Source: Negaprion brevirostris
Lineage: Eukaryota
Assembly (NCBI GenBank): GCA_030324005.1
Contig: JARDVH010000084.1
Span: 39,142,465-39,206,464, forward strand
Direction: 5' to 3'
DNA length: 64,000 nt
Part shown: positions 1 to 64,000 of the stretch, piece by piece
Layout of the letters: every line of letters starts with the position of its first letter
Numbering within the stretch: position 1 is the stretch's first letter
Notes under the pieces: model-generated
The model's input: the letters and a program-made list of their open reading frames with translations, nothing else
Databases searched by the model: none
Told to the model about the DNA's origin: nothing
Translations under genes and position numbers: made by a program

Positions 1-698
1 GCTGGAGAGGATGCAACATTTATTTATGGGACAAATTAATGATGCTGAATCCAAGTTAAATATCCAGCATTAAAAAAAACTGAAAGGAAGATAGTTCATC
101 GATAAGCAATATGAACTAATTTTTAAAAAATGCAATTTCTCAGTCAAGGATCAGATGTCCGACTACACAATCATTTTACTTTAAGCCACTTACATAGAAT
201 TATCAGGGCACCAATATTCAGTGCAGTGAGGTGAAGTACTCAGCCACTGAAATCACTAGCCCAAAGATAAAAGACAGAATGTTATTTTAGCAATAAAATG
301 CCCTAAATACAATACTGTACCATTTAATTTTTTTCATCTATGGATCAATAATTTCGATGACAATTACATAAATTCTTGGTGAATACATTAAGGTCTTGAA
401 ATAATTTAAATTCTCAGTGAATACAAGGTCTTGAAACAATTTCAACAATTTCATGTTTTCCTTTAAAATTGATAACTTTATAACACTGATTGGGCAACAA
501 ACCACAAATTTCCTCATAAATACATCACAGCAATTTGAATGAACACTCTATGCTTCTTTTCAGTGCTCTCAGGCATCACTAAGAAATTAAAACTTAGTGT
601 GCCAAGCTGTCCAATTAACAGTTCATAGTCACAGTCACTTATGTTCTTCTTTACTATTATGTTAACCTTATTTGTTAGTGTTTATTAATATTATTTAC

Positions 699-2852: not shown

Positions 2853-3143
2853 TTTTAAGTTTATTTATTAGTGGCACAAGTAGATTTACATTAACACTGC
2901 AATGAAGTCACTGTGAAAACACTCCGGCGCCTGTTTGGGTACACTGAGGGAGAACTTAGCATGGCCAATGCACATAACCAGCATATCTTTCGGACTGTGG
3001 GAGGAAATTGGAACACCCAGAGAAAACCCACGCAGACATGGGGAGAATGTGCAAACTCCACACAGATAATGAGTTAAGCCAGGGATTGAACCCGTGTTCC
3101 TGGCGCTGTGAGGCAGCAATACTAACCACTGTGCCACCGTGCT
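2853..3143 (-). mobile_element. tRNA-derived V-SINE (HE1-like), near full length
   Basis: Minus strand has a tRNA-like A/B-box head (gcacggtggcacagtggttag...ggttcaatccc), central ggtttcctcccacagtcc domain and an AT-rich tail. Multiple copies in the window. Confidence 0.85.
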
Positions 3144-7866: not shown

Positions 7867-8392
7867 CTAGATTCCATACCCACCCCAAAGGAGAAGAAGT
7901 TATTTAAAAAAAACACTTTAATCAACACATACAAAGGTTAGATCACAATACGCAATGAGACACTGGTCTCCACAAAGTCCACTCCACTAACAGCCCAACT
8001 AATTTAGAGTAGGCGGTCAGATCAAGAAGCTGTGATTTTTGATCCTTAGACTAACTGTTCTGATGTAAGGAAGCAGGAGAAGTGCTAAAATTTGCCTCAT
8101 GAATCAGCGAGGATAAATAAATGAACAAGTCATTTTTACTTCCACTTTTTATTTGACTGCAAGTATCTGCATTAGGGTAGAATTGGGATTGCTATGATCA
8201 AAACAACACTGACATTTAATATTAAGCCTTATAAATGAACCACTGTCACTTGGGAAAGCTAAGGGTTCCAGAAGGCATCAGGATGTATGATCACAAGCAA
8301 ATGGATGGTGTTTTCAGGTTAAGAGAGAAGAGGAAAAATTGGCAGACAAAACTGGTAGGCTTTCTCCTAATAAATTCACTAGTACCAAAGTA

Positions 8393-8720
8393 CATAAGAA
8401 CATAAGAAATAAGAGCAGGAGTAGGCCATCTAGCCCTTCGAGCCTGCCCCGCCATTCAATAAGATCATNNNNNNNNNNNNNNNNNNNNNNNNNNNNNNNN
8501 NNNNNNNNNNNNNNNNNNNNNNNNNNNNNNNNNNNNNNNNNNNNNNNNNNNNNNNNNNNNNNNNNNNNCATTCCATCCGGTCCTGAGGACTTGTCCACAA
8601 TCAGTCCCTCCAGTCTGTCGAGCACCGCCTCTCTAGTAACAATAACGTCACTGAGACCCTCCAGTCCTACCGCCTTTCCATCGCTAACACCCGGCAAATT
8701 ATTCACGTCCTCCTCCGTGA
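8393..8720 (-). mobile_element. CR1 LINE fragments (3' tail and ORF2 linker), split by a gap
   Basis: (cataagaa)n tail with aggccatctagcccttcgagcctg. Minus-strand translation LDRLEGLIVDKSSGPDGM is typical CR1 pre-RT sequence. Confidence 0.8.
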
Positions 8721-8723
8721 GTA

Positions 8724-8778
8724 CAAACATATATAACAAACATATATACAAACATATAAAGTACAAACATATATAAAA
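8724..8778. repeat. Short imperfect tandem repeat (ACAAACATATAT-like) x4
   Basis: Directly visible. Confidence 0.7.
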
Positions 8779-10002
8779 CTTCACTAATACCTACAATTTA
8801 AATAAACTATTAAAAACAAACACACAAAAGCAGCATTCACTTTTCTTCTCTTACAGCCTCCTAACATGTATCAAGCTCACCACTTTTGCAATGCACACAG
8901 GCACAGTGAAATTAGTGATTTAAGGACCAACAAAAGTTATCAGGCCAAAGATTTTGCTTATCCATAACAAAATCAACTTGCATTCATATTCCAATGTGTT
9001 TAACAGAGGTGTAATTTGACAAAAATGATGAGCTTTGAGCTATGCTATCTTATGACTTACATCAAGGATTGCCCAGTCTCCATTTGGAAGGTGGCCACAA
9101 GCAATAAGCTTTTACTAAACATCTGAAACTGCCTTTTACAATCTTAACTTTCAGCCTTTGTCAGTTTGTACACAACTACGTAACTGCAGCTAATCATCTC
9201 AACCAGACCCTTCCCTTTTGGAGACATAATCCTTATTAGAAGTATCACATTCTGTCATCTTGATTGATCCCTCTGGTTTGCCCCTTACCTCTGCTCCCTA
9301 AAGTCAATGGATGCTAAGTTCATATGTCGGCAATCCGTCTACCCATTCACTATTAGATCTGGCGGTACCACACAAAGCTCTATCAGACTTACTCTCATCT
9401 GGCAAAATTGCTCACTCTAATCTAGGATGATCTTGGAATAAAGCTAATAACCAGCTTTGGTTTAGCAAATACTTTAGAATGATCACACTCCAGTGAAGCA
9501 TCTTGGAACACGTTTCTAGGTTAATGGCACTGTGCAGGAAAAAGTTATTGTTTGAAACTCTGGTCAGATCTTGAAACATCTTCAGTGACTTTCGAGTAGC
9601 ATCCATTCAAGCATTGGAATTTTGATAATTCTACTTAATCCTCATGCAATACTCATTCTTTTTCATTGAATGTTCCGGTATTGGTCACCATTACCAGAGC
9701 TGTAAGCAATTAGTTTAGTTTAAATTGATCCGATGAAAGGAGAATTGAGAAGGTCGAGAATTAATTCTCAATACTACACTTTTATCTTGGACAGATTCCA
9801 CTGTTATACATAATCTACCTTCCAACTTCAACAATATATTTTAGTATAGTTACACAAAAAGACAAGCAGTCAACAGTGCACCAACTATAGTACTCCACCA
9901 TAAACATCAAAAATAATTAAATTTAGTTCGAGCAAAATTGCTTACTGACAAATGGAAATGTGTAAACTGAAATTTAGTTGCAATATTCGAACCAGTTGTT
10001 TT

Positions 10003-10322
10003 CATAGAACATTACAGCGCAGAACAGGCCCTTCGGCCCACGATGTTGCGCCGACCAATTAAAAAGCAATGACCCTCTANNNNNNNNNNNNNNNNNNNNN
10101 NNNNNNNNNNNNNNNNNNNNNNNNNNNNNNNNNNNNNNNNNNNNNNNNNNNNNNNNNNNNNNNNNNNNNNNNNNNNNNNACCTCTCGGCCCAGCTCTGCA
10201 ACTTGTCCAAGTCTCTCTGTAAACTATGACACCCCTCCTCACTATCTACCACACCTGCGACTTTGGTGTCATCAGCAAATTTACTAATCCACCCAACTAT
10301 ACCCTCATCCAGATCATTTATA
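10003..10322 (-). mobile_element. CR1 LINE RT C-terminus and 3' tail, gapped
   Basis: [33 protein letters not shown]; tail catagaacattacagcgcagaacaggcccttcggccc. Confidence 0.85.
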
Positions 10323-10633
10323 GATTTTCATCCACAAATTAAAGCATAGTGCGGTGTACTTTGGGTTACAAATATGAGCAAGCAAGAATTTCCAATTTGA
10401 AGTGAACCACAAAATAAAAGGCATCTATTGAATTGTCTTAGCGCATCATTTCTCAATTTCTCTATTCACAAAAATAAAGTGTATTTATTTCACAATCAAA
10501 ATCCTCTTGACATTTGTTAAATGATTCAGGTTTGTAACAAAAACATGAGCAGATCTACTGTCATGAAACTAATAATTTATAGCAAGTTGAAGGGGAGAAA
10601 AACAGCTACCAGTACAACACAAGAAATACTCAC

Positions 10634-11522: not shown

Positions 11523-11831
11523 GGCAGCACGATGGCACAGTAGTTAGCACTGTTGTCTCACAGCATGAAGGACCCCGTGTTCGATTCCCAGCTTGGGTCA
11601 TTGTGTTCGGAGTCTGCACATTCTCCCTGTGTTGGCATGGGTTTCTTCTGGGTGCTCCGGTTTCCTCCCACAGTCCGAAAGACGTGCTAGTTAGGTGCAC
11701 AGGCCATGCTAAAAAACTCTCCCTCAGGATACACAAACAGAAGGGAGAGTGTGGCGTTTAGGGGATTTTCATAGCAACTTGATTGCAGTGTCACTATAAG
11801 CCTACTTCTGACAATAATAAATAAACTTAAA
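11523..11831 (+). mobile_element. tRNA-derived V-SINE (HE1-like)
   Basis: Same family as 2853-3143, opposite orientation. Confidence 0.85.
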
Positions 11832-12824
11832 ATATATGTAAACATAGATAGTCACGTAGCAACTTGGAGTAGTTACAGTTATTGTCTAGATAGACAAGGA
11901 GCAATTTTGCCAGGCCTTGCCTTGCTCTCCATCACTCCATTCAAGGAGCACCTTGGATAATTTTCAGGCACTGGGCCAATATATGACTAGATATAGGTCA
12001 AACACCCAATTAGAACTGTTTGAGGTATTTGGGTTGTCCTAAGTGCAGCAAGGAACATGCTTCCTCCACTCAGGTTTTTCATGCACATATTGCTTGAAAC
12101 TGTTTCAATAAATGCTTTTGTTTGATGAAAATCTTAGAATGAAGCAATTCTAAGAGAACACAGTAAAGAATTTCTTCACTTATTGAACTTGATCAGTGGA
12201 AAGCATCCCACAATGGTATGACACTATGCTAACTTTCAAACAGCTGATTTTTAAAAAATCAGCGATGTTCAACCACATTTCAAGCTGTATCTATCTCTTA
12301 CCCATTCTTTCATGTACAAGTGCCAATGAAAATCTCTATTTCGAATATTCCTTTTTAAATGTTAAAATTACAATTAAATGATCAGTATTTCCAACACCAA
12401 ATGTTAGCACCCTACGATGGAACACACTTCAACAGATCCTATTTGATTCATAATAATGCTTATGTAGGAGCTATTGGACATTGTAGTTAATACAAAATTA
12501 CTCAATGAACATTTTGCCTTATTGCATTCATCATAGTAGATGTTACTTCCCATAACTGATGTATTTCTTCAGCTGCCAATTAAATGAAATGTCATTAAAG
12601 TAAGTCAAGTAACACTCCCTTTCCCCAACCAAATCCTCTCCTTCCTTTCATATCAAATGAACAATTATCACACTTACCCTGCCTGTTAAATTTTAAATCG
12701 TCATGGATGTTGAGTGCATATCCATGCAAATTCAGTATAATTCAGAGACAGATCTGAAGAATGAAGAAAGAAATTCCACATTCTAAAATAATAAAACTTT
12801 CCTGAAGGAATAGTATAGTTGTTT

Positions 12825-14384: not shown

Positions 14385-14980
14385 AATTTGATTTCATTTC
14401 ATTTATTATTGTCACATGTATTAATATACAATGAAAAGTATGTTTCTTGCGTGCCAAATAGACAAAACATGCCGTTCGTAGAGAAGGAAACGAGAGAGTG
14501 CAGAATGAAGTGTTACAGTCATAGCTAGGACGTAGAGAAAGATCAATTTAATGCAAGGTAAATCCATTCAAAAGTCTGACAGCAGCAGGGAAGAAGCTGT
14601 TCTTGAGTCAGTTGGTACATGACCTCAGACTTCTGTATNNNNNNNNNNNNNNNNNNNNNNNNNNNNNNNNNNNNNNNNNNNNNNNNNNNNNNNNNNNNNN
14701 NNNNNNNNNNNNNNNNNNNNNNNNNNNNNNNNNNNNNNCTTAAAAACTTGAAGATCTCCACTCTTTCCACTTCATCCCCATTGATGTAAACAACGGCATG
14801 TTTTTCTTTATGCTTCCTGATGTCGATGACAATCGCCTCCGTTTTATTGACACTGAGAGAGAGATTATTGTTGCCGCACCAGTTCACCAGATTCTCTATT
14901 TCATTCCTGCACTCTGTCTTGCTATTGTTTAGGATCCAATCCACTACAGTGGTGTCGTCAGCAAATTAAAAAGTCGAATT
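14385..14980 (-). mobile_element. Rex1/Babar-like LINE RT and 3' end, gapped
   Basis: FADDTTVV; EIENLVNWCGNNNLSLSVNKTEAIVIDIRK..VYINGDEVERVEIFKFL. Same tail recurs at 54684-54910. Confidence 0.75.
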
Positions 14981-15910
14981 GGAAGGCAATAGGTCTCTTC
15001 TCAACTGATGACTGCAATCCCCTTAACCCCAGAGCATATTGTTTACCATGCTTGTGCATAATTTGCTTTATAGTGAAGCAAAGAGATAGAATTCAAATAC
15101 AAAAATACAGCAGCATGCATTGGAGATGTAATGGTGGCATATCTCAGACACAACCTTTCCTAATGCCCTAGTTTACTTTCAACATTTTCCTCTGTCATAA
15201 GTAATTGCAGATAGGCTCACGATTTTACAGTAGAATGCAGTTAAATATTTTTCAAAGTAATTTTCTTATTTGCGGACGAGAAAATTTGACTATTACCAAA
15301 TGGCAGTTCTAAATACAAGTTGGTTGCCTCCATGTGTTTTGGAGAAGTGAATATAGTGCTATGTTCCTGACTGCCTATACTTATATTTTAATAGCATCCT
15401 GAAGTTCTTGAAATACTGCCATATGAAAGTTTGTAGCCTCACTGTTAAAATTGACAGTTTTAATGAAATATGAATTATCTTCTGACACAGTGCTTAGATG
15501 AGCTGCATTTATATGCTGCACTCCACATGGAGAAACAGCCTAAGGTGCCTCTGTGCCAATATCAAGAGAAGAAGCCGAGCCCCCAAAGAAGGAGATTTAA
15601 GAAGAGGCATTTAAAGTCTTGGTTGAGGAAGCAGGTCTTAAGGATGAACGTTAAGATGGAATTTTAAACACCAGTATCAAGAGTTTAAAAAAAGGTATTT
15701 TGCTAATGTGGGACAACTGAGGAAGCTATATAAAATGGGCATAGTCAGAAGTAGTGGGCCGGCGGAGAAGTTAAAGGGATAAAAGAGCTTATAGACAAGG
15801 GGAGGGGTTCTTGAGAGCAGATTTATTACAATGGCTTTGAAATGGAGAGAGAATGGCAATAAACCATATCCAATGCCAGCCAACAGGGGCCAAAAAATAG
15901 ATTTTATATA

Positions 15911-16190
15911 GTTTTTATTTTCATTAGTGTCACAAGTAGGCTTACATTAATGCTGCAATGAACTTGCTGTGAAAAATCCCTTAGTCACCACACTCTTGCC
16001 CCTGTTCAGGTACACTGAGGGAGAATTTAGCACGGCCAGTCTTTTTGACGGTGGGAGGAAACCAGAGCACCCAGAAAGAAAACACGCAGATGTGGGGAGA
16101 ATGTGCAGCCTCTGCACAAGTAGTGACTGAGGCTGGGAATCGAAGCCCGCTCCCTGCAGCTGTGAGGAAGCAATGCTAACCACTGTGCTG
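15911..16190 (-). mobile_element. tRNA-derived V-SINE (HE1-like)
   Basis: Same family as 2853-3143, with an internal deletion. Confidence 0.85.
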
Positions 16191-17359
16191 ACAAACTTCC
16201 CCAAAAGAGAAGTGGCCGGAAGTCAAGCACAAATATGGTCAAAACAGCAAGAAAGGATTATGCCAAATGTGTTTAGAAGGGCTGAAATGATGGTGGCAAT
16301 TGTTGCCAAAAGAGCAGAGCTGTTGCTAAAAGTTACGGCTGATCTACAAGTGGTTAATTCCCCACAATTCACAAGCTATCTAATGACATTGAAGAGACCT
16401 TGTTGAAAATTTCAGAAGTACTTTCAGTCACGGCAGCAATAGCTATTCTTGTAAGTGGTTTGAGCAGCTAAGTTTCAAGAGTGGGTCATTGTTGTTGAAA
16501 ATCCAATCATACAGTAATGTAACTGAGGAGCATAACTATAGAAATCTTGTGATCAGCTGGAAATTGCGTCTTTCATACAGGTACTTCCTTAATCTTTGAG
16601 CACAGATTAAAACACTTAGCTTGGCGGAGGGGGGGGGGTTAGATGTGAAGAGATATCCAACTGAATAGCCCATATTTAAAAAATAAATAAAAATTTACCA
16701 AACCATTCTGATTAGCCAGGTTCACCTAATGACTTTATGTATCTTGGCACGCCTCACTTCTCACCAGCTCCGAGTGTCAGAGGAGCAATTTACCCTGGCT
16801 AGGCTAAGGTTCCTGCCCAGTCCAACCTTGCTGCACATATATCCCTTTTTGTCTGTGGCCTCTCTGTGTTCCAAGCCAATTGAAGGGCAATCATTCTAAT
16901 TTCTTCCTCAATCAATGACTTTGCAAGGAGATCTAGCAATCAGACATCTTCTCCTCCCTTGGCAAGCAGGTTTAATAAAACATTTCCTATCCTTAAAATG
17001 AACTGCATGTCATTTTATGGATCCCAAATTAAATAACTGAAACTCATGGTCACAGTTCGAAGCAGATATTGAGCCACAACATTCCAGCTAGCTTCAAAAC
17101 ACAATATTGATGTTTGCAACATTTGTTTAAATATATGTAAACCCACTTTGCTTTAAACCACTTAAATAAAACTTATTGTTAAATCTTTCCTTAGAGGAAC
17201 AAAATTCATCAAAAATCCCAAAACTACCAGGAAGTGGCCAACCAAATTCTGTTTCTTGTGTACCATTCTTTGAGACAGTGGAGGCTGTTGTTACATCTTC
17301 TAAATACTCACACTTACAATATCGAAATGGGTTCCTTTCAGAATACACCAAAGGTCTTA

Positions 17360-17590
17360 AATAAAAACAGAAAATCCTGGAAAACTTAGCAGGTCTGTCA
17401 GCATTTATGGAGAAAAAACAGACTTAATGTTTTGGGCCCATATGACCTCTGGAGCACTGAAGTAGGCTCATATGGACTTGGAATGTTAACTCTGCTGTTC
17501 TCTCCATAAATGCTGCCAGGTCTGCAGAATGTTCCAGCATTTTCTGTTTTTATTTCAGATTTCCAGCATCTGCAGTTTTTTTACTTTTAT
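17360..17590. mobile_element. Decayed palindromic element of the family seen at 21081-21612
   Basis: Arms aaataaaaacagaaaatcctgg...cagcatttatggaga and tctccataaatgctg...ccagcattttctgtttttattt, with a decayed hammerhead-like centre. Confidence 0.7.
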
Positions 17591-20142: not shown

Positions 20143-20531
20143 AAGACTAAGTCATGAGCTTTGTTAAAGAGAGTTAGTATTCATAGGGAAAATTGAGGTT
20201 TATGAAGGAAAATCTGAATCATAGAACATTACAGCGCAGAACAGGCCCTTCGGCCCACGATGAAAACAAACGAGCTTTTCACTTGATTTACTGATTTGTT
20301 TATTCTATTAGCATACCTTGCACCCATTTTACACCCAAATAACAGGCAGAACATATGCCAATTCCTAATAGAAATGTTGCACCTGAAATGCTATTGCAGT
20401 TCTGGAAGTAGTAAGTACTGTACCGTTACTGAATGTTTTGAGCATTTTTGTATTATGGATGTATTCATTTATTGAAAGAAGACAAGGTGACAATTGAACA
20501 CAGTACATAAGTTATTTAACATGGGTCAAAC

Positions 20532-20679
20532 CTAGATCAAGGCCATTTCTCATGATGGTGACAGTTCGTTCATAATCTTCAGACACCAGCCTTTGGTCAC
20601 TGCCTTCTGCATATGTAAGGGAAGACAAGGAAGCTCCACTGAACTTCCCTTCNNNNNNNNNNNNNNNNNNNNNNNNNNN
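20532..20679 (-). CDS. PATJ: PATJ-like exon, start of the extra PDZ (...EGKFSGASLSSLTYAEGSDQRLVSEDYERTVTIMRNGLDLG); 5' boundary uncertain (within N gap 20653-20679, or at 20699)
   Basis: Donor CTA G|gtttga (phase 1) joins in frame to the exon at 10829. ERTVTI..LDLG resembles MPDZ ERTVTIAKG..SLG and the PATJ remnant SLDLG. Confidence 0.75.
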
Positions 20680-21124
20680 GCACTTCAGCAGCAAATTATC
20701 TAGAATTTAGTTCTGACATCAACACAGATTTAGATTATTTTAATATGAAGAATATATAAAGTCCAAATGTCTTCCAATGACACCCACTTCAACCTTTGCT
20801 GATGGTGTAGGAGATCTTGGCACGTCCTTTATTCGGTTTCTTGAAATAGTGAAATGTATTTATATCATTAATCTTGAAGATTAATAAATCTTATTCACAT
20901 ATTTCATGAATAATATTGATGCTCAAACAAAATGAATACTCGGCTACAGCAATTTAAAAAGAAATTTACTATCATCCTTGGGAATAACTTAAGTTTTGTG
21001 CAACACTTCTGAAATGGATTCAGCAGAATCAGTTATTTTTCATTTACTGAGAAGTTACATTAAACAGCATTTCATTGGCAACAAAAACAGAAAATGCTGG
21101 AGAAACACAGCCAGTCTGACAGAT

Positions 21125-21423
21125 GGGCAGCATGGTGGCACTGCTGCTTCACAGCACCAGGGGTCTGGGTTCGATTCTAGGCTTGGGTCACTGTTTGTGC
21201 GGAGTCTGCATGTTCTTTCTATGTCTGCGCGGGTTTCCTCAAGGTGCTCTGGTTTCCTCCCACAGTCCAAAAGATGTACTAGGTAGGTGCATTGGCCATA
21301 CTAAATTCTCCCTCTGCATACCTGAACAATTGGAGGGGTGTGGCGACAAGAGGATTTTCACACTAATTCCATTGCAGTGTTAATGTCAGCCTACTTACGA
21401 ATAATAAATAAACTTAAAACTAA
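21125..21423 (+). mobile_element. tRNA-derived V-SINE (HE1-like) nested in the palindromic element
   Basis: Family match. The flanking arm sequence rejoins across it (tctgacag | atctgtg). Confidence 0.85.
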
Positions 21424-21439
21424 ATCTGTGTAGAGAGAA

Positions 21440-21484
21440 CAGAGCCAATATTTCGAGTCAGGATGACCCTTCATCAGGGCTCTG
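21440..21484 (-). ncRNA. Minimal type I hammerhead ribozyme motif
   Basis: CAGAGCC-CUGAUGA-A-GGGUCA-UCC-UGACUC-GAAA-UA-UU-GGCUCUG: 7-bp stem I, 6-bp stem II, intact core, palindromic AAUAUU in place of stem III. Confidence 0.7.
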
Positions 21485-22929
21485 ACAAAGGGTCATTCTG
21501 ACTCGAAACGTTGGCTCTATTCTCTCTCCACAGATGCTGTCAGGCCTGCTGAGCTTTTCCAGCATTTTTTGTTTTGTTTCAGTTTCCGGTATCCACAGTA
21601 TTTTGCCTTTGTCTTCGGATTTAACTTGGCAACTTCTGTTTAAAGACCTGAAGAGATTCAAATACAATTTCTATTACATGCTGTTGTGACATCAAAGGAA
21701 ACCTCAATCTTACAATACACATTTGCCTTCAGCATTCGCAACATCCCAAAGGATAACACACATGCCGATTAACACAGGATTGGTCTGGATTTTTCTGGAC
21801 TTATCAAAAATAAAATGCCCTGGAGGAGCCAGAGAACTTCCACCTGTCCTTGTGATTCCAGCAACACTAGACCACACTTTCCTTGAAAAGAGTCTAATTT
21901 AGTATTCAGGATGAGGATCCCACTTCTGACTGTTGCTTCATCATTGGGAGAGAGATAAGTGCTATCAATTTGCAGCAGCTTTGAGAGCCAGGAGTACAGC
22001 ATTTCAGTTAGCAGAGAAAGAGAGCACGAAGTGAGAGGGGAAGAAAAAACTAAATGAGAATGAGAAAACAAAAACAAAATGACAAAGAGTCTATGGGCAG
22101 CAAAAAAAAGTCAGACATGAAAGAGAGGGAGATGAAAAGAGGAAACAAGAAAGAGTTAAGTAAGACTAAGTAAATGCATTAATTGACCATCAAGCTGGTG
22201 TTACAGTCCAAGTACAAAGTGGAATGGCAGGAGGAGGAATAACATCGGACTGGTCTGCACTGGCCAAAACCCCAAATTTTCCGAAGCTGAAGTGAGGGTC
22301 GTATTGCTGAGCCAAAGTCAATGAGAGAGGTTCTTTGGCATCAAGGAATGGAAGCCTCAGAAGAAGTAGGTTCAGGCAATCAACACTACTTCATCAACGG
22401 CAATTCAGTGTCATATACAAAGTAAAGGTTGATCAAGGCAGATTGAGGAACAAATCTCCAATGCAGACACTGAAATAATACTGGAAGTGTGGCTCAACTC
22501 CAAAGGACTACATAGTCTGAAAGAACAGATGAATGAGACGGCTATTAAGCACAGGATGCCCTCACCAAATTCCCCACTCCCACCCTCAGCCAAATGTCCT
22601 TCTCCTACCACTGCACTATTTCATGCCCCATTTCTTGCAGAGTCTAAATGAAGAATCAACACCTGGTTGCACTGTCTGTACCTAAAATATACAATTGAAT
22701 GATTATATTCACCTAGCTTAAATTAAGTTATGTTCAGTCTTGGTGGCGGACGGCTTCCATTTCCAGCCCTCCTGGGAGATAATTTTATCACATAATTTCC
22801 TCCCAGTTCCCCCTGCTCATTAGCTGTGCAAATCATCCTGTGTATCACTGTGTACTTCCTCCACAGTAAATAGCTCCATGTCCTGAGAAGGATTAGAGAT
22901 ACTACGAAAACAAGGTAAGCAATAATCAA

Positions 22930-23047
22930 ACATAAAAGCAAATTACTGCAGTTGCTGGAATCTGAAACAAAAGCAGAAATCGCTGGAAAATCTCAGTAAG
23001 GCTGACAGCTTCTGCGGAGAGAGAATTGAGTCCAGATAACACTTTGT
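22930..23047 (-). mobile_element. Partial copy of the same palindromic element, running into a gap
   Basis: aaagcaaattactgcagttgctggaatctgaaacaaaagcagaaatcgctggaaaatctcag is the reverse complement of 21540-21610. Another partial copy at ~62090-62172. Confidence 0.65.
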
Positions 23048-23309
23048 NNNNNNNNNNNNNNNNNNNNNNNNNNNNNNNNNNNNNNNNNNNNNNNNNNNNN
23101 NNNNNNNNNNNNNNNNNNNNNNNNNNNNNNNNNNNNNNNNNNNNNNNGAAGAATAATCAAGGTCTTATGCAAGTACAACACTTGCTCACGGAATAAATTT
23201 AACCTTTCTCTTGGGAATTCTCAACATGATCAAAAAATTGGTGGTCTCTGTTTTCTTCCACTTGGCTTTCTGCAGTTGTAAGCTCTGATTATTATAGTGG
23301 CCAAATGAT

Positions 23310-23900
23310 GAAGGATGCAATAAGCCACTAAAATTTTTACAGTGCTGGTGCACTGTACTACAGGAACACCTTTGATCTAACCAGGCAATGGAAACAAAAC
23401 TGTAGGATTCCAGTTCTAATGCTTTTGCCCTTGAATGGAACATCATCTATGGTTAAAGTAACCACTGCTATCAGCAATTCTGACTCACTACTCTGATCAA
23501 TATTCCATTTATCCATGATATATATTGCCTGAGGATAAAGGAATCAAGGCTATATGACAAAATTGACATAAAGAATGAGGTGGCTTGCATTCTTCTCAAT
23601 CTATCCAGGAAGCTTTCACGATTCATTTATATGCAGGCATGGTTTGTGAAATTCTCAAACAAGACCTTTATTGCCATGAGAGTGGCATCAGTGGCACCAT
23701 GCACTTAGAGAAATCAAACCACTGTAGAGAAATTAATTGGTGCCTCTCATTGCTTTGCTGGGACCATGACAGGAGTACCTGAATAGAACACCCATCATCA
23801 GTAATGCACTTATGCACTGTTGACTGACTAATGTGAATAATGTCACCAGAGGCCATTTGGAAACATTTAATGCATAAAAATGTAGTACTGTTATCCCCTT
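23310..23900 (-). mobile_element. PIF/Harbinger (HARBI1-like) transposase pseudogene
   Basis: Fragments FQMASGDIIHISQSTVHKCITD, KVHGATDATLMAIK, DSFILRQ and DS.GY in Harbinger DDE order, with frameshifts. Confidence 0.7.
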
Positions 23901-24845
23901 CAGAGTCATTAAAAGGGTTGTATCCCAAGCGAAACACGGCTGCAGGTTAGGTTCAAACAACTGGCATTTCTCTGCCACACTGTCAGGAAGAAAACAGTCT
24001 TCTCAGATAATAAAATGCAAAAAATCCATATCGGAATGCTGTGTTCTGTCACTTGTATCACACAGGTGGCTGTAAGTATTGCCTGCATGGTCTTCTCCAC
24101 TATGCCTTCAATATCCTTCCCCTCAAAGCACATGAACGGTGTGTTATGCATTTAAAGTGGTTACACCTTCACTGGTATAACATCATGTGACCTGTAGTGA
24201 CATAAGCAGAGGAATTTGAAGCTTCTGAGGTTCTGCCATCTTGGACCTGGAACAAGTGAAACCACATGGTTGACAGTAAGACTTCTTCAAAGCATGATGG
24301 GAAAACAGCCAACTACACAAACATCAGAACTATAAAAAACTGAGTTTGAGGTTCAGTGTACAGCAAGAAAAAACATGAGAAGTGAAGACAGGCAGTTGAA
24401 TGACGAATGTCCCTGCAATAAGGGTCATTTGACCTTTATGGTTGCAAAGGTTACTATTGATAGGTAACAATGGAATAGATGTCCTGTTTTTATGACCCTT
24501 GGACAAATGATCTCAACACTGGGAGAGTCTTGGACAAACAAGCATTTTGGAGCAGAAGTAGTATAAAGGTGGAAGTCTCAAGGTATCACCAGTGACAACC
24601 CGGCCAGGCCATCACAAAGGAAGATGCTGACCTCATAACTCAGAGAAGACTACAGCTCAGCGGAACATGACCAATTCATCATACATGGATAGTATTTTAA
24701 ATCCAAAAAGGGTCTCGTGACCTGTCATAAAGAAACGCTAGAGTACTGAGTTAAACATATGATCTTTAAGAAGGAATGTATATTGAGTTTTTGTATGTCT
24801 TGTGTCTTCAAGTATTACGAATGAATTGAACCAGCTTACAGTCTG

Positions 24846-25123
24846 ATGCGCAGGTTAGGTTGATTAGCCATGCTAAAGTGACCCTAGTATCAGAGGGATT
24901 AGCAGGGTAAATGTGTGGGTTTACAGGAATAGGGTCTGGATGGGATTGTGGTCAGTACAGGCTCGATGGGCTGCATGGCCTCATTCTGTACTGCAGGGAT
25001 TCTATGATACTCTGGTGTCTTTTTCTGATATGAGAATTAGAAAATAAACAATTGACATCTAAAGACATCCAAAGATGTGCAAGTTAAGTGGATTGGACTT
25101 GCTAAATTGCCCATTAGTGTTCC
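24846..25123 (+). mobile_element. Partial V-SINE copies with CR1-type tail
   Basis: gatgcgcaggttagg...gcctcattctgtactgcagggattctatga, plus a second short piece at 25069-25123. Confidence 0.7.
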
Positions 25124-25301
25124 AAGAACAAATTGCCTCTTGGTGTCAAGTGAACAGGAGTACTTGAACAATTTGCAAGCTATATTGGAACATCTGCAAA
25201 AATATAATCTCCGGGTCATAAAAAAAGTGTGACTCTTTCATTTTTCCCACGGGTCACATCATTAATAAAGATGGTTTGCATAAAGTACTCAAAAAGATGA
25301 T

Positions 25302-26233
25302 GGGCAGGATTCTCCCAAAAAATTCTAAGTGCCGAATTTGCTTAAAAACTGGAATAAATCTCGCTAGTTTTTTTTTCGCAGGAGTTTCAAAATGAATCTC
25401 CCACACTCTTAAACGTCACATAATGCCCTAGCATGAATTACTCCAAAAATCAGAGGGCAGGTCTATCTCCGCTGCAGAGGCCAGCAGCACATCACTGAAG
25501 CAGAAAGCACACTGGAAATGTGAACATTATCTGGGGTAAATTGGAGTTTTGAGTTGCGTTCAGGGGCAAAAAAGGATCACATTAAAAATATCATGCTTAT
25601 GACTGTCAAAGTCAGAGCGGAGATCGGCGAATGCATAGTAATCATGCATTGCCGGCCTCTAGATTGCCGGTCAGCACAGGAACCCCTCATCATTTCCCCA
25701 CTAATCCCCTAGCCTANNNNNNNNNNNNNNNNNNNNNNNNNNNNNNNNNNNNNNNNNNNNNNNNNNNNNNNNNNNNNNNNNNNNNNNNNNNNNNNNNNNN
25801 NNNNNNNNNNNNNNNNNNNNNNNNNNNNNNNNNNNNNNNNNNNNNNNNNNNNNNNNNNNNNNNNNNNNNNNNNNNNNNNNNNNNNNNNNNNNNNNNNNNN
25901 NNNNNNNNNNNNNNNNNNNNNNNNNNNNNNNNNNNNNNNNNNNNNNNNNNNNNNNNNNNNNNNNNNNNNNNNNNNNNNNNNNNNNNNNNNNNNNNNNNNN
26001 NNNNNNNNNNNNNNNNNNNNNNNNNNNNNNNNNNNNNNNNNNNNNNNNNNNNNNNNNNNNNNNNNNNNNNNNNNNNNNCCACCACCCCACCCCCCCACAC
26101 TCCTGGCAGGGGAGGGAGGGAGTGAGTGGCTAATGGGCCAGAGACTTCAGTATTGGACCAACTAATGATATTAAAATTGTGATTTAAATATTTTAATCAG
26201 TTAATATAGCATAGCAGCTGGGAGAATCGCCTC
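25302..26233. mobile_element. Non-autonomous DNA transposon (MITE, probably Harbinger-type) inserted in the Gypsy RT
   Basis: Ends gggcaggattctccc and gggagaatcgcc are inverted. The Gypsy RT reading frame rejoins across it (KKM | TAIL). Confidence 0.6.
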
Positions 26234-27223
26234 AACAGCGATTTTAGAAACATATCCTCAAAATGTGACGCAACTGAGATAATTTCTCAGATTAATGAAC
26301 TATTATGGTAAATTTGTTCCAAGCTTAGCAACACTATGAACATCAATAAACACTTTGCTACGTACCAAACAGGCATGGCACTGGACAAAATAATGCGAAA
26401 CAGCAAATAAAGAGGTCAAAAAATTCTTGAAGTAGTCAGAGCAATTAGTCTACTTCAAGCCCAAACTGAAGTTACAACTTGCTTGCGGTTCTTCCCTTCA
26501 CAAACTTTTACTAGCACAGAAACAAGTTATGGCTCAGCTGGAAAAAGCAGCTTTGGAGGGAGAAGATTCCATCACCACCTTCATGGGTGTTATTTTACAC
26601 TTTTGACAGATCACCTGCCTTTTGACAACAACAGTCCACTATATAAAGGTATTCCTTCTTTAGCAGATCATAGGGTACAGAGATGGTCTTTGATATTATC
26701 CGCACACACCTATGATAGTAAATATTGTCAATCAGAGCAACATGCAAACACTGCTGTTTTGTCAAGATTGCTAATACAAATCAAGCAAGAANNNNNNNNN
26801 NNNNNNNNNNNNNNNNNACCTTTCTTACAAGCGAATAGTGTACCTGTGACTTCATCTCAACTTCAGAGACACAGAAGAACTGATCCAGTGATGAGGAACG
26901 TTATGAAAGGAACGATGACAGAAGGACAGTGTAAAAACCCAAATCTCAAGCCTTACATCAGAAGACGACTTGAGTTGACAGTCCAGAGTGGTATTTTGTT
27001 ATGGGGAACCGAGTGAATATTCCTCCTTGCTTGCGTAGAAAAATCCTTGCACAGCTGCACAAGGGACATCCAGTTGTGGTGAGAATGAAGGAACTGACAC
27101 TTAGGTATTTCTGGGGGCCAGGATTAGATGCACAAATCAAAGAGAATGTGGGGCAATGTCAGTCCTATGCAAAGCTAGGAAACACTTCACCGCTACAATC
27201 CTGACATCAACGGGAATGGCTGA

Positions 27224-27321
27224 AACACAGTAAGAAGTCTCAGAACACTAGGTTAAAGTCCAACAGGTTTATTTGGTAGAAAACGCCACAAGCCTTCGGG
27301 GCTCTGCCCCTTCGTCAGGTG
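27224..27321 (-). mobile_element. Penelope terminal fragment with a near-intact hammerhead motif
   Basis: Same family as 3835-4042. Minus strand reads CAC-CUGACGA-A-GGGGC-AGA-GCCCC-GAAG-GCUU-GUG. Confidence 0.7.
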
Positions 27322-27617
27322 CTTTTGAAGAGATAAGAGCAAAATTTGATCTTCTCATACCATCTGATACTTCANNNNNNNNNNNNNNNNNNNNNNNNNN
27401 NNNNNNNNNNNNNNNNNNNNNNNNNNNNNNNNNNNNNNNNNNNNNNNNNNNNNNNNNNNNNNNNNNNNNNNNNNCATACCATCTGATACTTCAGAGATTA
27501 TTGAATGACAACAAAAAGCACAGGCTTCTGGAAAGGACCAGAACTCTAAAAAGGAGAACAAGTACAAACACTACCAATGGAAAATGGCTACCCGCCAATT
27601 TCATAGGAAAAACAAGT

Positions 27618-29475
27618 CAAAGACAAAGACAAAGACAAAGAACAGTACAGCACAGAAACAGGCCCTTCAGCCCACAAAGCCTGAGCCAACACATGACCCC
27701 TTTCTAAACTAAAGACCTTTTGCTTCTATGCAGTCCGTATTCCTCTATTACCTGCCTATTCATGTATCTGTAAAGATGCCTTTTAAATGTTAATACCATA
27801 TTTGTTTCTACTACCCCCTTTGGTAGCACACTCTAAGCACTTGCCATCCTCTGCGTAAAAGACTTGCCTCTCACATCTCCTTTCAATTCTCCCAATTTTA
27901 CCTTCAACCTATGTCCCTTAGTAAATGATATTTCTACCCTGGGAAAAAGACTCTGACTGTCCATTAAATCCATGCCTCATAATTTTATAAACTTCTATTA
28001 GGTTGCCCCTCAGCCTCTGATTTTCAAGTGAAAACAACCACGTTTGTCCAAACTCTCCTCATAGCTAAAACATTCTAAACCAGGCAATATCCTGGTAAAT
28101 CTTTTCTGCATCTCTCCAAAGCCTCCACATTCAGCTGGTAGTGTGGCGACCAAACTGTATGCAGTATTCCAAACATGGCCTCACTAAAGTTCTATCCATT
28201 TATGGCATGACTTGCCAATTTTTATACTCTATGCCCCAACTGATGAAGACAAGCATAGCATCATTTTCTGACCACCTTATCCACTTGTGTTGCCACTTTC
28301 AGGGAACTGTGGACCAGTACGCCTCAATACCCCTGTATGTTAATGCTTCTTAGAATTCTGCCATTTCCTGTGCACTTCCCTCCTGCATTAGCCCTTCTAA
28401 AATGCATCACTTTGTATTTTACGGGATTAAATCCCATTTGCCATTTCTCCACCCAAGTCTCCAACTTATCTATATCCTGCTGCATTGTGTGGTGATCCTC
28501 CTCACTATCCGCAGCTCCCCCAATCTTTGTGCCATTCGCAAATTTACTAATCAGACCACCTACATTCTCCTCCAAAGCATTTTTTAATATATATATTGTA
28601 AACAACAGGGTCCTAGTGCTGATCCCTGCAAAACACCACTGTTCATAAATCTCCAGTCAGAATCTCCAACATTATTCGCTATCTTCTATGATCAAGCCAG
28701 ATTGGTAACCATTTTACCAGCTCACTGCAGATCCCCTGGGACTTTACCTTCTGTATCAAGAGGTCCCTTGTCAAAGGCCTTGCTAAAGCCCATGTAGACA
28801 ACAACCACCACCACCCTGCCTTCATCAATCATCTTTGTCACTTCCTCAGAAATCTCATTCAAGTTTGTGAGACATGGCCATCCCAGCACAAAGCCATGCT
28901 GCATATCGCTAACAAATCCATATTTTTCTAAATGTAAATTTCTGTCCCTAAGAATCTCCTCCAACAATTTCCATACCACTGACATAAAGCTTGCTGGACT
29001 GTACTTTTCTGGATTATCCCTGTTGCCATTCTTAAACAAGGGAACAACATTGGCTATTCTCCAGTCCCCTGGGACCTCTCCTATTGCTAATGAGATACAA
29101 AGATTTTGTATAAGGCGTCAACAATTTTCTCCCTCATCTTCCTCAGTATTCTGAGATAGACCCCATCAGATCCTGGAGGTTGTCTACCTCAATGTCTTTC
29201 AAAGTACCTTACACCTTTTTATATTGACATGTCCTAGAATATCAACACACTCTTCTCTAGGCCCACCATCCACCATGTCCTTCTCCCTTGTGAATACCGA
29301 TGCAAAGTATTCCCTAGGACTTCACCCTTCCTCCAGCTCTATGCATAAATTTCTTCCTTTGTCCTCGAGTGGACTTACCCTTTTCCTAGCTACCCTCTTG
29401 TTCCTTATATGTGTATAAAACATCATGGGATTTTCCTTAATCCTGTTTGCCAAGGTCATTTCATGGGCATTTTTA
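27618..29475 (-). mobile_element. CR1 LINE ORF2 (RT) and 3' tail, 5'-truncated and frameshifted
   Basis: FKNGNRDNPEKYSPAS..VVWKLLEEILRD, QHGFV, VYMGFSKAFDK, LISKFANGTKIGG, WQMGFN; (caaaga)n tail. Confidence 0.9.
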
Positions 29476-30439
29476 GGTCCAATATCTTACACTGCACAGG
29501 CGAATAATGAGAGAGTTTGGCAACATCATAGTGACCAGATACTTCCCTCACTAAGTGAAATCATTGATGCTTCACAATAAGTACTGACATTGGAAATGCT
29601 AAGTTAGTCTAGACAAATCCAGATTCTGTTTCTGAAGAATCTTCAATACCAATAGAAACTGACACTGAAATAGTTTCACATGAGGAATTACCAACTGAAG
29701 AAAAACAGGACACTTCAAGGGTCTCAAGTAGCTAAATTCCAATTGAATTCGGTACAATGCAAAAGAAAGACATCCACCTAAGAGAATGTCTTATTAATTG
29801 TTTACGTGGGAAATCATATTTAATTCAGTCTGTTGGTAAAACATTAAGAAAGATTGTCGCTTGCAGACAAAAGAAGTAAAACAGGAGGTATATTATGTAT
29901 TTAAAGTTGTTGCATCTCTGCTGGTATAACATTTTGTGGCCTGGAGTGATATAAGCCGAGGGATTTGGAGGCTTTTGAGGCTCTTCCATCTTTAACCTGG
30001 AAAAAGCAACATCTCCAAAATAAACCTGTATTGCACTGACTTAAACACACAAGTAAAGCACCTCATTATTTCTCTCTTTGTCGTAATTCCTGATCAATGC
30101 ATAATGCAATGAAATTATATAAGGGAAAGTCATTATTTCTGTAAAAAGAACTCTTAGGTTTGCTGAAAATTTAAGCAAATACCTTTTGGCATAAAAATTT
30201 TGCAGCTGTTCTATGCTGCAAGTCACTCTGAACCAGAAGCCCATTGTACGACCATGACCAGTTAGGAAGAATATGAGAGCTAAACAGAGACACAGGGGAG
30301 AAAAGGCTGGGAGTTTGTGATGACAGAGAAAGAGAAAGCAAGGATAAAACATAGACATGCACAACTTCCGGGATTCGTTTTGGCTATTATTGGCCATGGA
30401 AGAAATTCCTACCCATGAGAACATGATTCTTCCCGCTTA

Positions 30440-30805
30440 GAAAGGATAGCAGGACTAGAGGGCACAGCTGGCAGCACAGCAGTTTAGATCAGAGTTGAGA
30501 AGGAACTTCTTCACTCAAAGGGTGGTGAATCTCTGGAATTCTCTGCCCGTTGAAGTGGTGGAGGCTACCTCGCTAAANNNNNNNNNNNNNNNNNNNNNNN
30601 NNNNNNNNNNNNNNNNNNNNNNNNNNNNNNNNNNNNNNNNNNNNNNNNNNNNNNNNNNNNNNNNNNNNNNNNNNNNNAAGGGTTATGGGGAGAAAGCGGG
30701 AAAGTGGAACTGATCCACTTCAGATCAGCCATGATCTTACTGAATGGTGGGGCAAGCTCGAAGGGCTAGATGGCCTACTCCTGCTCCTATTTCTTATGTT
30801 CTTAT
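30440..30805 (+). mobile_element. CR1 LINE 3' end
   Basis: RRNFFTQRVVNLWNSLP and (ttcttatg)n tail. Confidence 0.85.
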
Positions 30806-31436
30806 GGTTATAAATTGTAAAAATATTACATTACTTCAGAATTTTTAACATTGTGCACAAACAAAATTGTTCTGGCCAGTCCTGTAGCATCCATAATTCA
30901 GTTAAATTTATTTCAATAGGATACATATGGTAAGAATAGCATGTTTTAGAGGAGCTGGTGTTTTTGAACACATGATTCCGAGAACTTTTCGTCACTAGAA
31001 GATTTCCTCATCTTATGTCTGGGTCTAATGTATGACAATTGATCGCAACAATTCCATCATCATTGTATCATACAATTACTACAATGCATGAAGGAGACCT
31101 AGATGAATCACAGTCTTGATTCATTAAGCAACTTCCATGTTCCTAGGGTACTATCCAGTATTCTTCTGGCAAAGTGGAATATCAAAGTAGTTACTGTCCA
31201 AGGTACAGGGAGAATTATAACTTAGAAAAGAAATAGATTTAAAATAAGAGCACCACGCTTCTCCATAAAGGAAGCAAAGTTGCAGGAGGATGTGGCTCAT
31301 GTGCTTCTAATTACTATACTGCATGTTTATGGATTGGGATGAATCAACTTACTGACACTGAGTACTTATCAATTTTTCAAAAACACTTAGTTGTGATATT
31401 GCAAGTGCATGTTACACTTAATAACATTATTCTTAC

Positions 31437-31775
31437 CTCGCTTGCATTATTGTCTTGCAATAATTGTGAAGCATTAAGTATTTGATCATCAGCTGTTTTT
31501 ATGTTTGTTGGGATTGTCAGCTCAGAATATTCCAATTGATCGTTTATATGTTGCTTGTCAACATTTTCATAAATTAGCTGTTCTAGCTCATTCTCATCAT
31601 CCACCAACATTTCCCGCTCTTCATTTCCCTGGCTCCACTGATCTCTTGCAAACCTCTCTGTTGGCCCAAATTTAGCTTCACTGCCAGCCCTGCTGGGACA
31701 TAAATCCAACAACTCTAAATGCGGCTCAGGTTCATCAACTAGTTCTTCTTCGGAAAATGAAGCATCTTCAAATTC
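31437..31775 (-). CDS. PATJ: PATJ-like acidic linker exon (EFEDASFSEEELVDEPEPHLE...GNEEREMLVDDENELEQ...LLQDNNASE)
   Basis: ccaatag|GAA acceptor, GAG|gtaaga donor; 339 nt, phase 0/0. EELVDEP and EEREMLVDDENEL match recalled human PATJ EELVDEP and EEREILVDEEYEL. Confidence 0.88.
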
Positions 31776-40708: not shown

Positions 40709-41118
40709 AAAGTTTATTTATTAGTCACAAGTAAGGCTTACATTAACATTGCAATGAAGTCACTGTGAAATTCCCCTAGTCGCCACAATCCAGTGCCTGN
40801 NNNNNNNNNNNNNNNNNNNNNNNNNNNNNNNNNNNNNNNNNNNNNNNNNNNNNNNNNNNNNNNNNNNNNNNNNNNNNNNNNNNNNNNNNNNNNNNNNNNG
40901 TCACTGTGAAATTCCCCTAGTCGCCACAATCCGGTGCCTGTTCAGGTCAATGCACCTAACCAACACGTCTTTCAGGCTGTGGGAGGAAACCAGAGCACCC
41001 AGAGAAACCCATGCAGACATAGAAATAACGTGCAAACTCCACACAGACAATGACCCAAGCCAGGAATCGAACTCAGGTGCCTGGTACTATGGCACAGCAG
41101 TGCTAACCACTGTGCCAC
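40709..41118 (-). mobile_element. tRNA-derived V-SINE (HE1-like), split by a gap
   Basis: Family match; gap flanks are duplicated. Confidence 0.8.
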
Positions 41119-58296: not shown

Positions 58297-58622
58297 TACA
58301 TAGAATCATACATAGAATCAAAGAATCCCTACAGTACAGAAGGAGGCCATTAGGCCCATTGAATCTGTACCGACCATATCTCACCCAGGCCCTATTCCCG
58401 TAACCTCACACTCAATCTGCTAATCCTCCTAACATTAGGGTCAATTTACCAGGGCCAATCAACCTCGCCTGCACATCTTTGGACTGTGGGAGGAAACCAA
58501 AGCACCTGGAGGAAATTCACACAGACACAGGGAGAAAGTGTAAACTCCACATGGACAGTGACTGAGGCCAGAATAGAACTTGGGTCCCTGGCGCTGAGAG
58601 GCAGCAGTACTAAACACTGTGC
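58297..58622 (-). mobile_element. HE1-like V-SINE with CR1-derived 3' tail
   Basis: Same head and central domain as the other V-SINEs, but tail ggcctccttctgtactgtagggattct(atg)n. Confidence 0.85.
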
Positions 58623-61990: not shown

Positions 61991-64000
61991 CACAAAAATG
62001 TCTATCTTCAATAACCAATTCAAACCAACACTGAATTAAACTTATAACTATGCATCTAATAAGTGATGAAATCCAACATCTACCACATCATAAATGCAAA
62101 TTACTGCAGATGATGGAATCCAAAACCAAGAGAAAATGATAAAAGATCTCAGAAGGTCGGGCAGCATCTGTAAGGGGTGTGTACCACATTATGATCCCTC
62201 TGGTACTATGAGCTCACTACCTTCTTTGGATGGCAGTCCTTATAAAGTCAAGCACTTCAGATATGAAAATACACTGTTCTCTTTCAAAAGGAAACTGGCA
62301 ACATATGCAAAGGATTAAATTCATTCTCGAGTAAAGGAATAAATATATGGTGGCTCAACATTTAACAAACTATTGCATGATATTCTAAGTTTTCCCACAG
62401 CTCAGCAGCTTAGAATTAAATCAAGTTAATATCCTTCAATCCTAACCAGTTTTACATAATAAATCACTCAATATTTNNNNNNNNNNNNNNNNNNNNNNNN
62501 NNNNNNNNNNNNNNNNNNNNNNNNNNNNNNNNNNNNNNNNNNNNNNNNNNNNNNNNNNNNNNNNNNNNNNNNNNNNTAAAACAAACTTTGCCATGGTCTT
62601 GCTTATGTTTAGACAGCAAAAGCATTCGTGATTATGTGCAATGATGTAGAGAAATATGCCCAAATGACTTCAGAGAAAAGACAAAACTATATTGCTCCTC
62701 TGTTTTTGCTATCTCTAGGTTGTCTTTAATCCTCCTCATGCTACGTCATTACCCAATGCCAATTCCATGCTGAACTAACTTACAACAAGTCAATTCGCCT
62801 TGTGATTTAACTTTCTATTCAAAACTACAGCTTGGTCTACACCTTAGTTAAGTAACTGGACTTAGAACAGAATCATCACACAATAATCACAAAAATACCC
62901 TTTAAACTGAAAGTGATTAAATCATTAGAGATACAGTTTAAAAAACATTACAAACATAACCAGTGATCTTTCTCCTGGTCAACTCAGTCCAGACAATGTG
63001 CAGATTTGACTGATGGTATCTGTACACTCGAACAAAGCTACTTTAGACTCTTGGTGAAAGGCAAAAAACCGAAACAATTTTTCCAAGATTGAGACTTATT
63101 GAAACCACAATAAGGGTATTACATGCACCTCCTTTCCAACAATAGATTACGAGCTTGAAACTCATTACAGGTCGTGCAATTCTGCTGCCTCTTTTTAGTA
63201 TCATTATGGCATATTTTTCATGTTTGCAATCCCAAACACTGATGGCTCACAGTCAATAGATGTGAACTCACCAACAAGCTGCTCAAGCAGCTGAATTTGC
63301 TAAATGTGTCATGAGTGTGTCCATCCTGTCAATGCTACCACAACCTTCCTCACTTGAACACTGGCAGACCCAAGCACTGCCTTTCAATGGACCAGGACTC
63401 AATCCACAGACTTTGTGGACTGCAGGTGCATGGCAAACCTACCCAGATCATGGGAACCCCTCTTCTTTACTCTTCCCATACAAGAATACTCATTCTCCAG
63501 TGCTACAACAAACTTCATCTGTGGTTCCTGAATTCTGATTAGCTCCCTTTTTTAACTATTCAGGCTCTCTCACAATTCATTCCTGACCCAGGGCTATTCC
63601 AAAAATTCCCATATCTTAAAATCAAGTGCCTTCCCAAGTTCACCCACTCCTATGGTCTTGCATCACAGATTCCAACACCAATTTGATGCTTGTACACTTC
63701 ACAACTACCCACTTGTTGGGACTCCTAGAGACAATGCTTTGCATACCCAGCTGCATTAGGACTAAATGGCTTTTTTTTCCATCAAGCTCAGTTACATTGT
63801 GGGTAATTGCTGATTAGTTTTAATACAAACTACAGGAAGCCCAATGGCTCCCAACATTTAAAATCTCATGCACATTGTTGGGAGTGAAAAAAACACTCAG
63901 AAGAATACCCCAGAAAGGGTCAAAAATCTGCTTGAGGACCCGGGAGCCAAAAAATTAGAATAGCAAATAAACAAGAGGCTGTTTTAAAAAGAAGCATAAC

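Follow-up and report, generated by a model that had tools for sequence, protein, structure and literature searches.

Two hammerhead motifs in an intron of shark PATJ belong to one head-to-head insertion of a Penelope-like element

The two hammerhead motifs that lie back to back at 21440-21518 in a 64-kb stretch of the Negaprion brevirostris genome (the window, i.e. the whole of the DNA that was analysed) represent both arms of a single head-to-head pLTR insertion, which extends over ~21083-21615 and is split by a SINE. This layout is already known, the insertion being an inverted-pLTR stub, now decayed, from a shark Penelope-like element (PLE). We are highly confident that a single old insertion is involved, whose intact-looking ribozyme is likely a survivor of CpG decay and is predicted to be locked in a hairpin. 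Remnants of an ORF bearing reverse transcriptase precede the same end, the tail is confined to one arm, the target duplication is degenerate and the SINE arrived later. For PATJ itself, the insertion is most likely of no consequence, and the family to which it belongs provides an extensive natural data set for two open questions, the role of the hammerhead and the formation of inverted pLTRs.

The two motifs and the insertion in the PATJ intron

Both motifs are present exactly where the initial annotation had placed them. The first, on the minus strand at 21440-21484, retains the entire core (CUGANGA, GAAA and UH), with C3 at 21477, an extra A after A9 at 21470 and an AUU site, where cleavage is predicted to fall between 21447 and 21446. 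As had been claimed, every core nucleotide is there, stem I has 7 Watson-Crick pairs and stem II has 6 bp, one of them G-U. The second motif, on the plus strand at 21476-21518, has a GUU site, a stem I of 6 bp including two G-U pairs, and indeed an A in place of G8, which faces C3 and breaks the conserved core, a mismatch likely due to CpG decay. Helix III is absent in both and its place is taken by a short palindrome, AUAU in the minus motif and ACGU in the plus motif. Folded alone, the minus 45-mer forms the hammerhead stems (z = -3.75, with none of 200 shuffles as good); for the plus 43-mer z is -1.54 and 16 of 200 shuffles are as good. When the window was scanned loosely (CUGAnGA, at least 4 bp in stem II, GAAA), two exact-core matches came up, the minus motif and one without stem I at 20582-20546, while Rfam at gathering scores gave no match in these 64 kb. 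The motif is not a chance occurrence and, as proposed, it belongs to a repeat family: a pattern for this family has 1,230 matches and the reversed control pattern none.

The minimal hammerhead was defined by Cervera and de la Pena 2014 (PMC4209133), who found monomers inactive and dimers weak and who also reported pairs on opposite strands, separated by 100-700 bp, and, in Schistosoma, a U3-A8 variant. The initial assignment to this Penelope type was right. Both the additional nucleotide that separates 9 from 10.1 and the G10.1-C11.1 pair, as in the minimal type I, are found in the minus motif, and the likeness to the PLE motifs of that report extends to the core, a long helix II, a parental helix I of 4 bp, the helix III palindrome, the position in the pLTR and a prevalence of solo truncated copies. 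The shark case is unlike them in its host, in motifs that overlap at the apex without a spacer and in the U17 of the subfamily. The 7-bp stem I, although present, is in part a by-product of the inversion: its first three nucleotides (CAG) are supplied by the other arm, being its CUG read backwards, and the extended stem amounts to these three bases together with two transitions away from the form most common in the family, the helix I of the parent having 4 bp.

Around the motifs runs an inverted repeat of 54 bp, 87% complementary, whose apex (21478-21481), by family comparison, falls on what in the parent is the 5' strand of a 4-bp helix I. According to the family profile, the right arm (21480-21615, plus strand) is full length and ends in a 30-40 bp tail at ~21581-21615. 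The tail-less left arm (minus strand) falls into an inner part at 21424-21479 and an outer part at 21083-21122 (profile positions +55 to ~+100 from C3), so that the right arm, which alone bears a tail, is ~35 bp longer. Between the two parts lies the SINE, a later insertion on the plus strand at 21125-21423, and the claim that a SINE splits the left arm is thus upheld, its label apart, the arm resuming beyond it at 21122-21083. By its resemblance this SINE may be a V-SINE; ARAGORN detected no tRNA in 21125-21423, and the same sequence has 7 further matches in the window, as at 2853-3118, 11547-11832, 15909-16176, 40710-41103 and 58437-58608. Without the SINE, the arms together measure ~230 bp, with no ORF between them. 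The unit is flanked by a degenerate target-site duplication of 14-15 nt with an exact 8-nt core (left copy 21069-21082, core 21075-21082; right copy 21619-21633, core 21626-21633).

A shark InaD-like (PATJ) protein maps to the window as eight minus-strand exons, among which those at 31437-31775 and 20524-20652, for about residues 827-939 and 941-983 of the shark homologue, bracket the insertion; the protein likeness also marks the host as a cartilaginous fish. The host intron is thus 20653-31436 and, because the PATJ exons are on the minus strand, it is the pre-mRNA strand that carries the minus motif, ~800 nt ahead of the exon that follows, in agreement with what had been annotated. Unique contigs from three related organisms enter both outer arms from the flanks, and the insertion is therefore older than their split; these contigs break inside the repeat. 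Since the insertion is common to two related organisms besides the host, it has not been purged. That the palindrome is an assembly artefact, i.e. a fold-back chimera, is a suspicion fed by the many gaps in the window and by the trouble that inverted structures cause in short-read assemblies (PMC8557442), but we give it next to no credence: the arms are 87% alike rather than identical, one of them contains a SINE, the unit is bordered by a target duplication and a 61-nt contig over the apex has no difference in run X1 (possibly the source sample) and two in X2 and X4.

Other remnants are scattered over the window. PATJ introns also hold a second palindrome, of the AACU subfamily described below, in which the core of one arm is deleted (17354-17589), a family arm interrupted by an assembly gap (22930-23047) and a family stub without ribozyme (62089-62174). 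There are, in addition, broken reverse transcriptase (RT) pieces that are LINE-like, presumably CR1/L2-like, and an integrase-like piece that we assume to come from an LTR element (8291-8790, 9974-10327, 14543-14965, 28324-29117 and 26411-27016).

The parent element and the structure of its copies

A broken ORF lies upstream of the same hammerhead at locus L033. With a 97-aa piece of this ORF as genome query, 6,690 candidates were obtained and 150 scored, and in 9 of 29 independent loci the hammerhead was found downstream of the ORF fragment, i.e. in a pLTR that follows a PLE ORF, eight times at 0.7-1.2 kb and once after an internal deletion. It is absent in the other ORF loci, many of which are interrupted by gaps, contig ends or the limit of the 1.5-kb flank, and extension of 12 ORF-locus stretches added new hammerhead cases in two. 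Pfam gave no match for the three broken ORF pieces of L033 or for L123, and a 367-aa open stretch at L110 matched RVT_1 below the curated cut-off. The 60 homologues of the latter mostly have RVT_1 and PF26215, and some also a C-terminal GIY-YIG domain (PF01541). As read from these sequences, the parent is an endonuclease-bearing (EN+) PLE with the hammerhead in its 3' end. Its clade can be narrowed down by the linker after the RT, for which a CxxC zinc-finger-like motif has been given as a Neptune character (PMC8557442). Such a linker (CX2-5CxxC, between RT and GIY-YIG) is found in four of the five inspected homologues (P0010, P0017, P0019 and P0024), and a CxxC linker occurs in the open frame of L123 too, which points to Neptune or Nematis; the parent is probably of the Neptune type, an assignment made by motif rather than by tree. 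The C-terminal GIY-YIG of the homologues and the linker are as in Neptune EN+ PLEs, whereas the shark family is known from broken copies, those recovered including no intact full-length one, and the linker is common to Nematis.

The family is very large. The central 157 bp used as genome query gave 3,071 candidates at first pass, of which 40 were scored, and a random genome sample (twenty evenly chosen 10-kb stretches with 166,207 called bases) contained 12 insertions, or ~1 per 14 kb, which corresponds to ~160,000-190,000 copies in the genome, all subfamilies taken together (roughly 80,000-340,000 once sampling error is allowed for). An expansion of Penelope has been reported in whale shark introns (10.1101/443036), and a search of research papers on hammerheads, Penelope, inverted pLTRs and sharks found none on the shark family.

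How these copies are built bears on the proposal, made in the initial annotation, of a non-autonomous family whose members bear one ribozyme per strand, in which the palindrome would be a self-standing element that spreads as a unit in the manner of a retrozyme or a SINE. Consistent with it, 72 palindromic loci retain both stem II regions, 47 of 49 arms among the best matches to the PATJ copy have an inverted partner (a set biased by the palindromic query), and the two arms of a palindrome share the +16 allele above chance (23/11/16, p = 1e-4, in a hand tally of 50 listed of 72 palindromic loci). However, only 20 of 60 unselected arms have such a partner, many with junction deletions, and among 52 loci selected by the ribozyme core alone and classified by eye 7 are inverted, next to 13 with the parent's upstream region, 26 single-arm stubs and 6 unclear cases. 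Palindrome centres vary in length and sequence (again among 50 listed of 72), so that the uniform structure and junction of an element copied as a unit are not seen, and each of the three subfamilies has members that remain attached to the upstream region of the parent. In addition, a near-perfect hairpin would be predicted to mask both ribozymes. As for retrozymes proper, the non-LTR retrozymes described in a preprint (bioRxiv 10.64898/2026.07.22.740005) are likewise ORF-less, derived from a PLE pLTR, endowed with a type I hammerhead and present in a cartilaginous fish, but they form head-to-tail arrays with two same-strand ribozymes. At the PATJ locus the arms are head to head, with one ribozyme per strand, and a head-to-tail array is absent. 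We thus consider the unit-spread element largely refuted, and very improbable.

The head-to-head pLTR insertion, for its part, has close precedents. In EN+ PLEs, a 5'-truncated inverted pLTR has been described beside a direct one, where the tail of 30-40 bp is confined to one end, palindromes occur at the junction and target duplications are short, and solo pLTRs are known as well (PMC8557442, PMC3846280); the tail has been explained as the interval between two RT start sites, the protein cutting and extending both target strands (PMC11167929). The PATJ insertion has the same head-to-head 5'-truncated arms, one-arm tail and target-site duplication. Across the shark family, arm ends are bimodal, 28 of 57 falling at +86..105 and 22 at +128..140, and in 15 palindromes picked by their centres alone out of the 72 matches the full tail was on exactly one arm in 14 and on both arms in none. 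This one-sided tail and the bimodal ends match the layout of the former two reports (PMC8557442, PMC3846280) and the two RT start sites of the latter (PMC11167929). For the single-arm stubs, 19 of 26 had a placeable end, and 6 of these 19 had a target duplication score of at least 8, compared with 1.8% of mismatched pairs. The closest parallel is with insertions of the Adineta Pen2a_Av type, which share the head-to-head arms, the junction palindrome, the one-arm tail, the short target duplication and the solo pLTRs; unlike these, the shark family has no ORF between the arms, a very high copy number and junctions that concentrate at the ribozyme's 5' edge.

CpG decay, selection and the prospects of cleavage

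The family pattern left the three CpG sites of the motif free, and their states were tallied by hand in the 100 listed of the 1,230 matching copies, the first 30 being checked by script. In these 100 listed copies, the N7/G8 site reads CG in 23, TG in 40, CA in 34 and TA in 3, the C11.1/G12 site CG in 33, TG in 27, CA in 39 and TA in 1, and the stem III site CG in 25, TG in 25, CA in 45 and TA in 5. Lethal and benign directions of decay are alike (p = 0.56 and 0.18). Given this symmetry, the CUGAUGA and CUGACAA of the two PATJ motifs are likely two decay products of one CUGACGA. Nor does the CG-to-UA difference in stem III, originally noted as a change that keeps the pairing, look like a selected compensatory change, since UA occurs in 36 of 1,230 copies and two control CpG sites give 4 of 200 (p = 0.64), which is no excess, and C3, G8 and G12 are all kept in only 10 of these 36. 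Copies as intact as that in PATJ make up 8 of the 100 listed. The intact-looking core of the PATJ copy is, on these comparisons, likely a chance survivor of CpG decay, and this copy appears to have evolved since its insertion with no sign of selection. There are two counterpoints, namely that its stems I and II are stronger than those of the family and that a minority T closing the sixth stem II pair is found on both its arms, a both-arm case seen in 1 of 50 listed palindromes. For ribozyme scans in general, a caution follows: CpG decay alone yields 'intact' cores and seemingly compensatory changes.

The parents are another matter. In a sister subfamily with 956 matches, 96 of 100 listed copies have U3 and 99 have A8; the site is GUC, position 17 being C, the stem I 3' strand reads AGCU in 15 of 20 loci, and stem I is a Watson-Crick AGCU/AGCU helix. 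Examples of this U3-A8 subfamily are found at L159-L178, L111, L112, L115 and L119. A third subfamily (163 matches) has AACU as stem I 3' strand and, in decayed copies, a mixed AGUU/AGCU 5' strand, counts that were made without automated position binning because many copies carry indels. Such covariation among sister subfamilies, which affects U3-A8 as well as stem I, argues that the ribozyme of the parents was under selection, and the U3-A8 subfamily indicates that their catalytic core was nonetheless kept working. The family-wide conservation that had been suggested as a check therefore gave a split answer, with covariation among parents and neutral decay among copies.

Whether the PATJ copy might itself have been co-opted, as an intronic ribozyme that acts in the processing of PATJ pre-mRNA, has to be asked because co-opted intronic hammerheads, such as those in amniote RECK, are known (PMC6155905). 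The intact core on the transcribed strand ~800 nt from an exon, the strong stems and the presence of the insertion in three related organisms would fit, but several findings make this very improbable. About 8 in 100 of the pattern-matching copies are equally intact without selection, and a 61-nt contig of the centre from a related organism, whose orthology is inferred, has 2 differences, much like the flanks (7/210 and 9/493). The minus motif lacks a monomeric stem III, and U at position 17 makes a poor cleavage site (NUH rule). An intact same-strand partner with which it could form a dimer was found nowhere in the 64-kb window, and PLE minimal hammerheads are, in the account already cited, inactive alone and weak as dimers (PMC4209133). 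Furthermore, the complementary arm, which is transcribed first, pairs across the whole motif. For a transcript with both arms, the predicted 54-bp hairpin (-83.9 kcal/mol) is favoured by 44 kcal/mol over the best fold that keeps the ribozyme (-39.6 kcal/mol). The predicted probability of the ribozyme pairs is 0.008 already in 21430-21495 and 0.000 with both arms, in line with the earlier remark that the inner arms can pair and mask the ribozyme, and the ribozyme fold is thus predicted to be inaccessible in the pre-mRNA, in contrast to the RECK type. These values are equilibrium predictions, which exclude proteins and A-to-I editing. According to this model, the intact-looking motif is likely locked in the hairpin and probably inactive, and cleavage of PATJ RNA by it is unlikely.

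Start points and a proposed mechanism

Where the copies begin was determined from the alignments. In the 26 single-arm stubs, agreement with the parent upstream of C3 is 22/26 at -1, 21/26 at -2, 18/26 at -3, 11/26 at -4, 10/26 at -5, 11/26 at -6 and 1/26 at -7. Capture of host exons upstream of the stubs was unsupported where it could be checked (the 19 of 26 stub ends that are placeable), since target duplications place target DNA there. Among unselected arms, 22 of 52 start at -10..+5 and 2 of 52 at +29..+35, around the cut site, these being alignment starts blurred by decay, and 5' ends made by cleavage were rejected as the main class on this count. Stub starts and palindrome apex thus coincide at the 5' edge of the ribozyme, away from the cut site. 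In the parent, the sequence here is a run of pyrimidines that ends in CAG and can be read either as an initiator or as a splice acceptor. For Penelope of Drosophila virilis, an intron has been mapped as ending where helix I begins on its 5' side (PMC4209133), and an internal promoter has been placed upstream (PMC2377424). That the copies retain the ribozyme in full, beginning at its 5' edge and not at the cut site, fits the report that in vitro uncleaved RNA is the main template; the hammerhead studied there needs the protein (PMC11167929).

The origin of the two arms can be approached through their alleles. Fully independent templates were rejected because of the concordance at +16 mentioned above, even though the +17 allele behaves as independent between arms (39/10/1, p = 0.71, same tally). 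Shared +16 alleles together with varying centres indicate that each palindrome was likely made anew, mostly from one source, and the arms could have been joined by fold-back or by two-strand priming. For the head-to-head insertion, a mechanism can be outlined in which the RT/GIY-YIG protein of the element would cut the target, after which uncleaved RNA would be copied from two start sites 30-40 nt apart, giving a tailed and a tail-less arm. Copying would run up to the 5' edge of the ribozyme, and there the two halves would be joined or one folded back. As a dimer, or assisted by protein, the parent ribozyme would probably be capable of slow cleavage. A more specific reading is offered tentatively, and we regard it as somewhat doubtful. 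In it, transcripts of shark Penelope would begin precisely with the first base of helix I, at a site resembling an initiator or a splice acceptor; uncleaved RNA would serve as the normal template, and the element would prime on both target strands from its two start sites. If true, the stubs and mirror-image pairs would form a genome-wide record of this mechanism, and the vertebrate U3-A8 subfamily would show that the ribozyme is still required at another step.

Three minor observations concern the ends and edges of the copies. At +17, the edge between loop and stem II, an A-to-T change that closes the sixth stem II pair is present in 12 of 100 palindrome arms and in about one fifth of the single matches listed, and this position is perhaps a mutation hot spot templated by the hairpin. 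Target duplications of ~8-14 bp often overlap the first bases of the element (L031-L052, L129-L158), which suggests joining by microhomology at the 5' end. Finally, at L040 and L104, which are internally deleted, the ORF is joined just past the RT straight to the 5' edge of the ribozyme, a junction that could be due to splicing to this edge or to a microhomology deletion.
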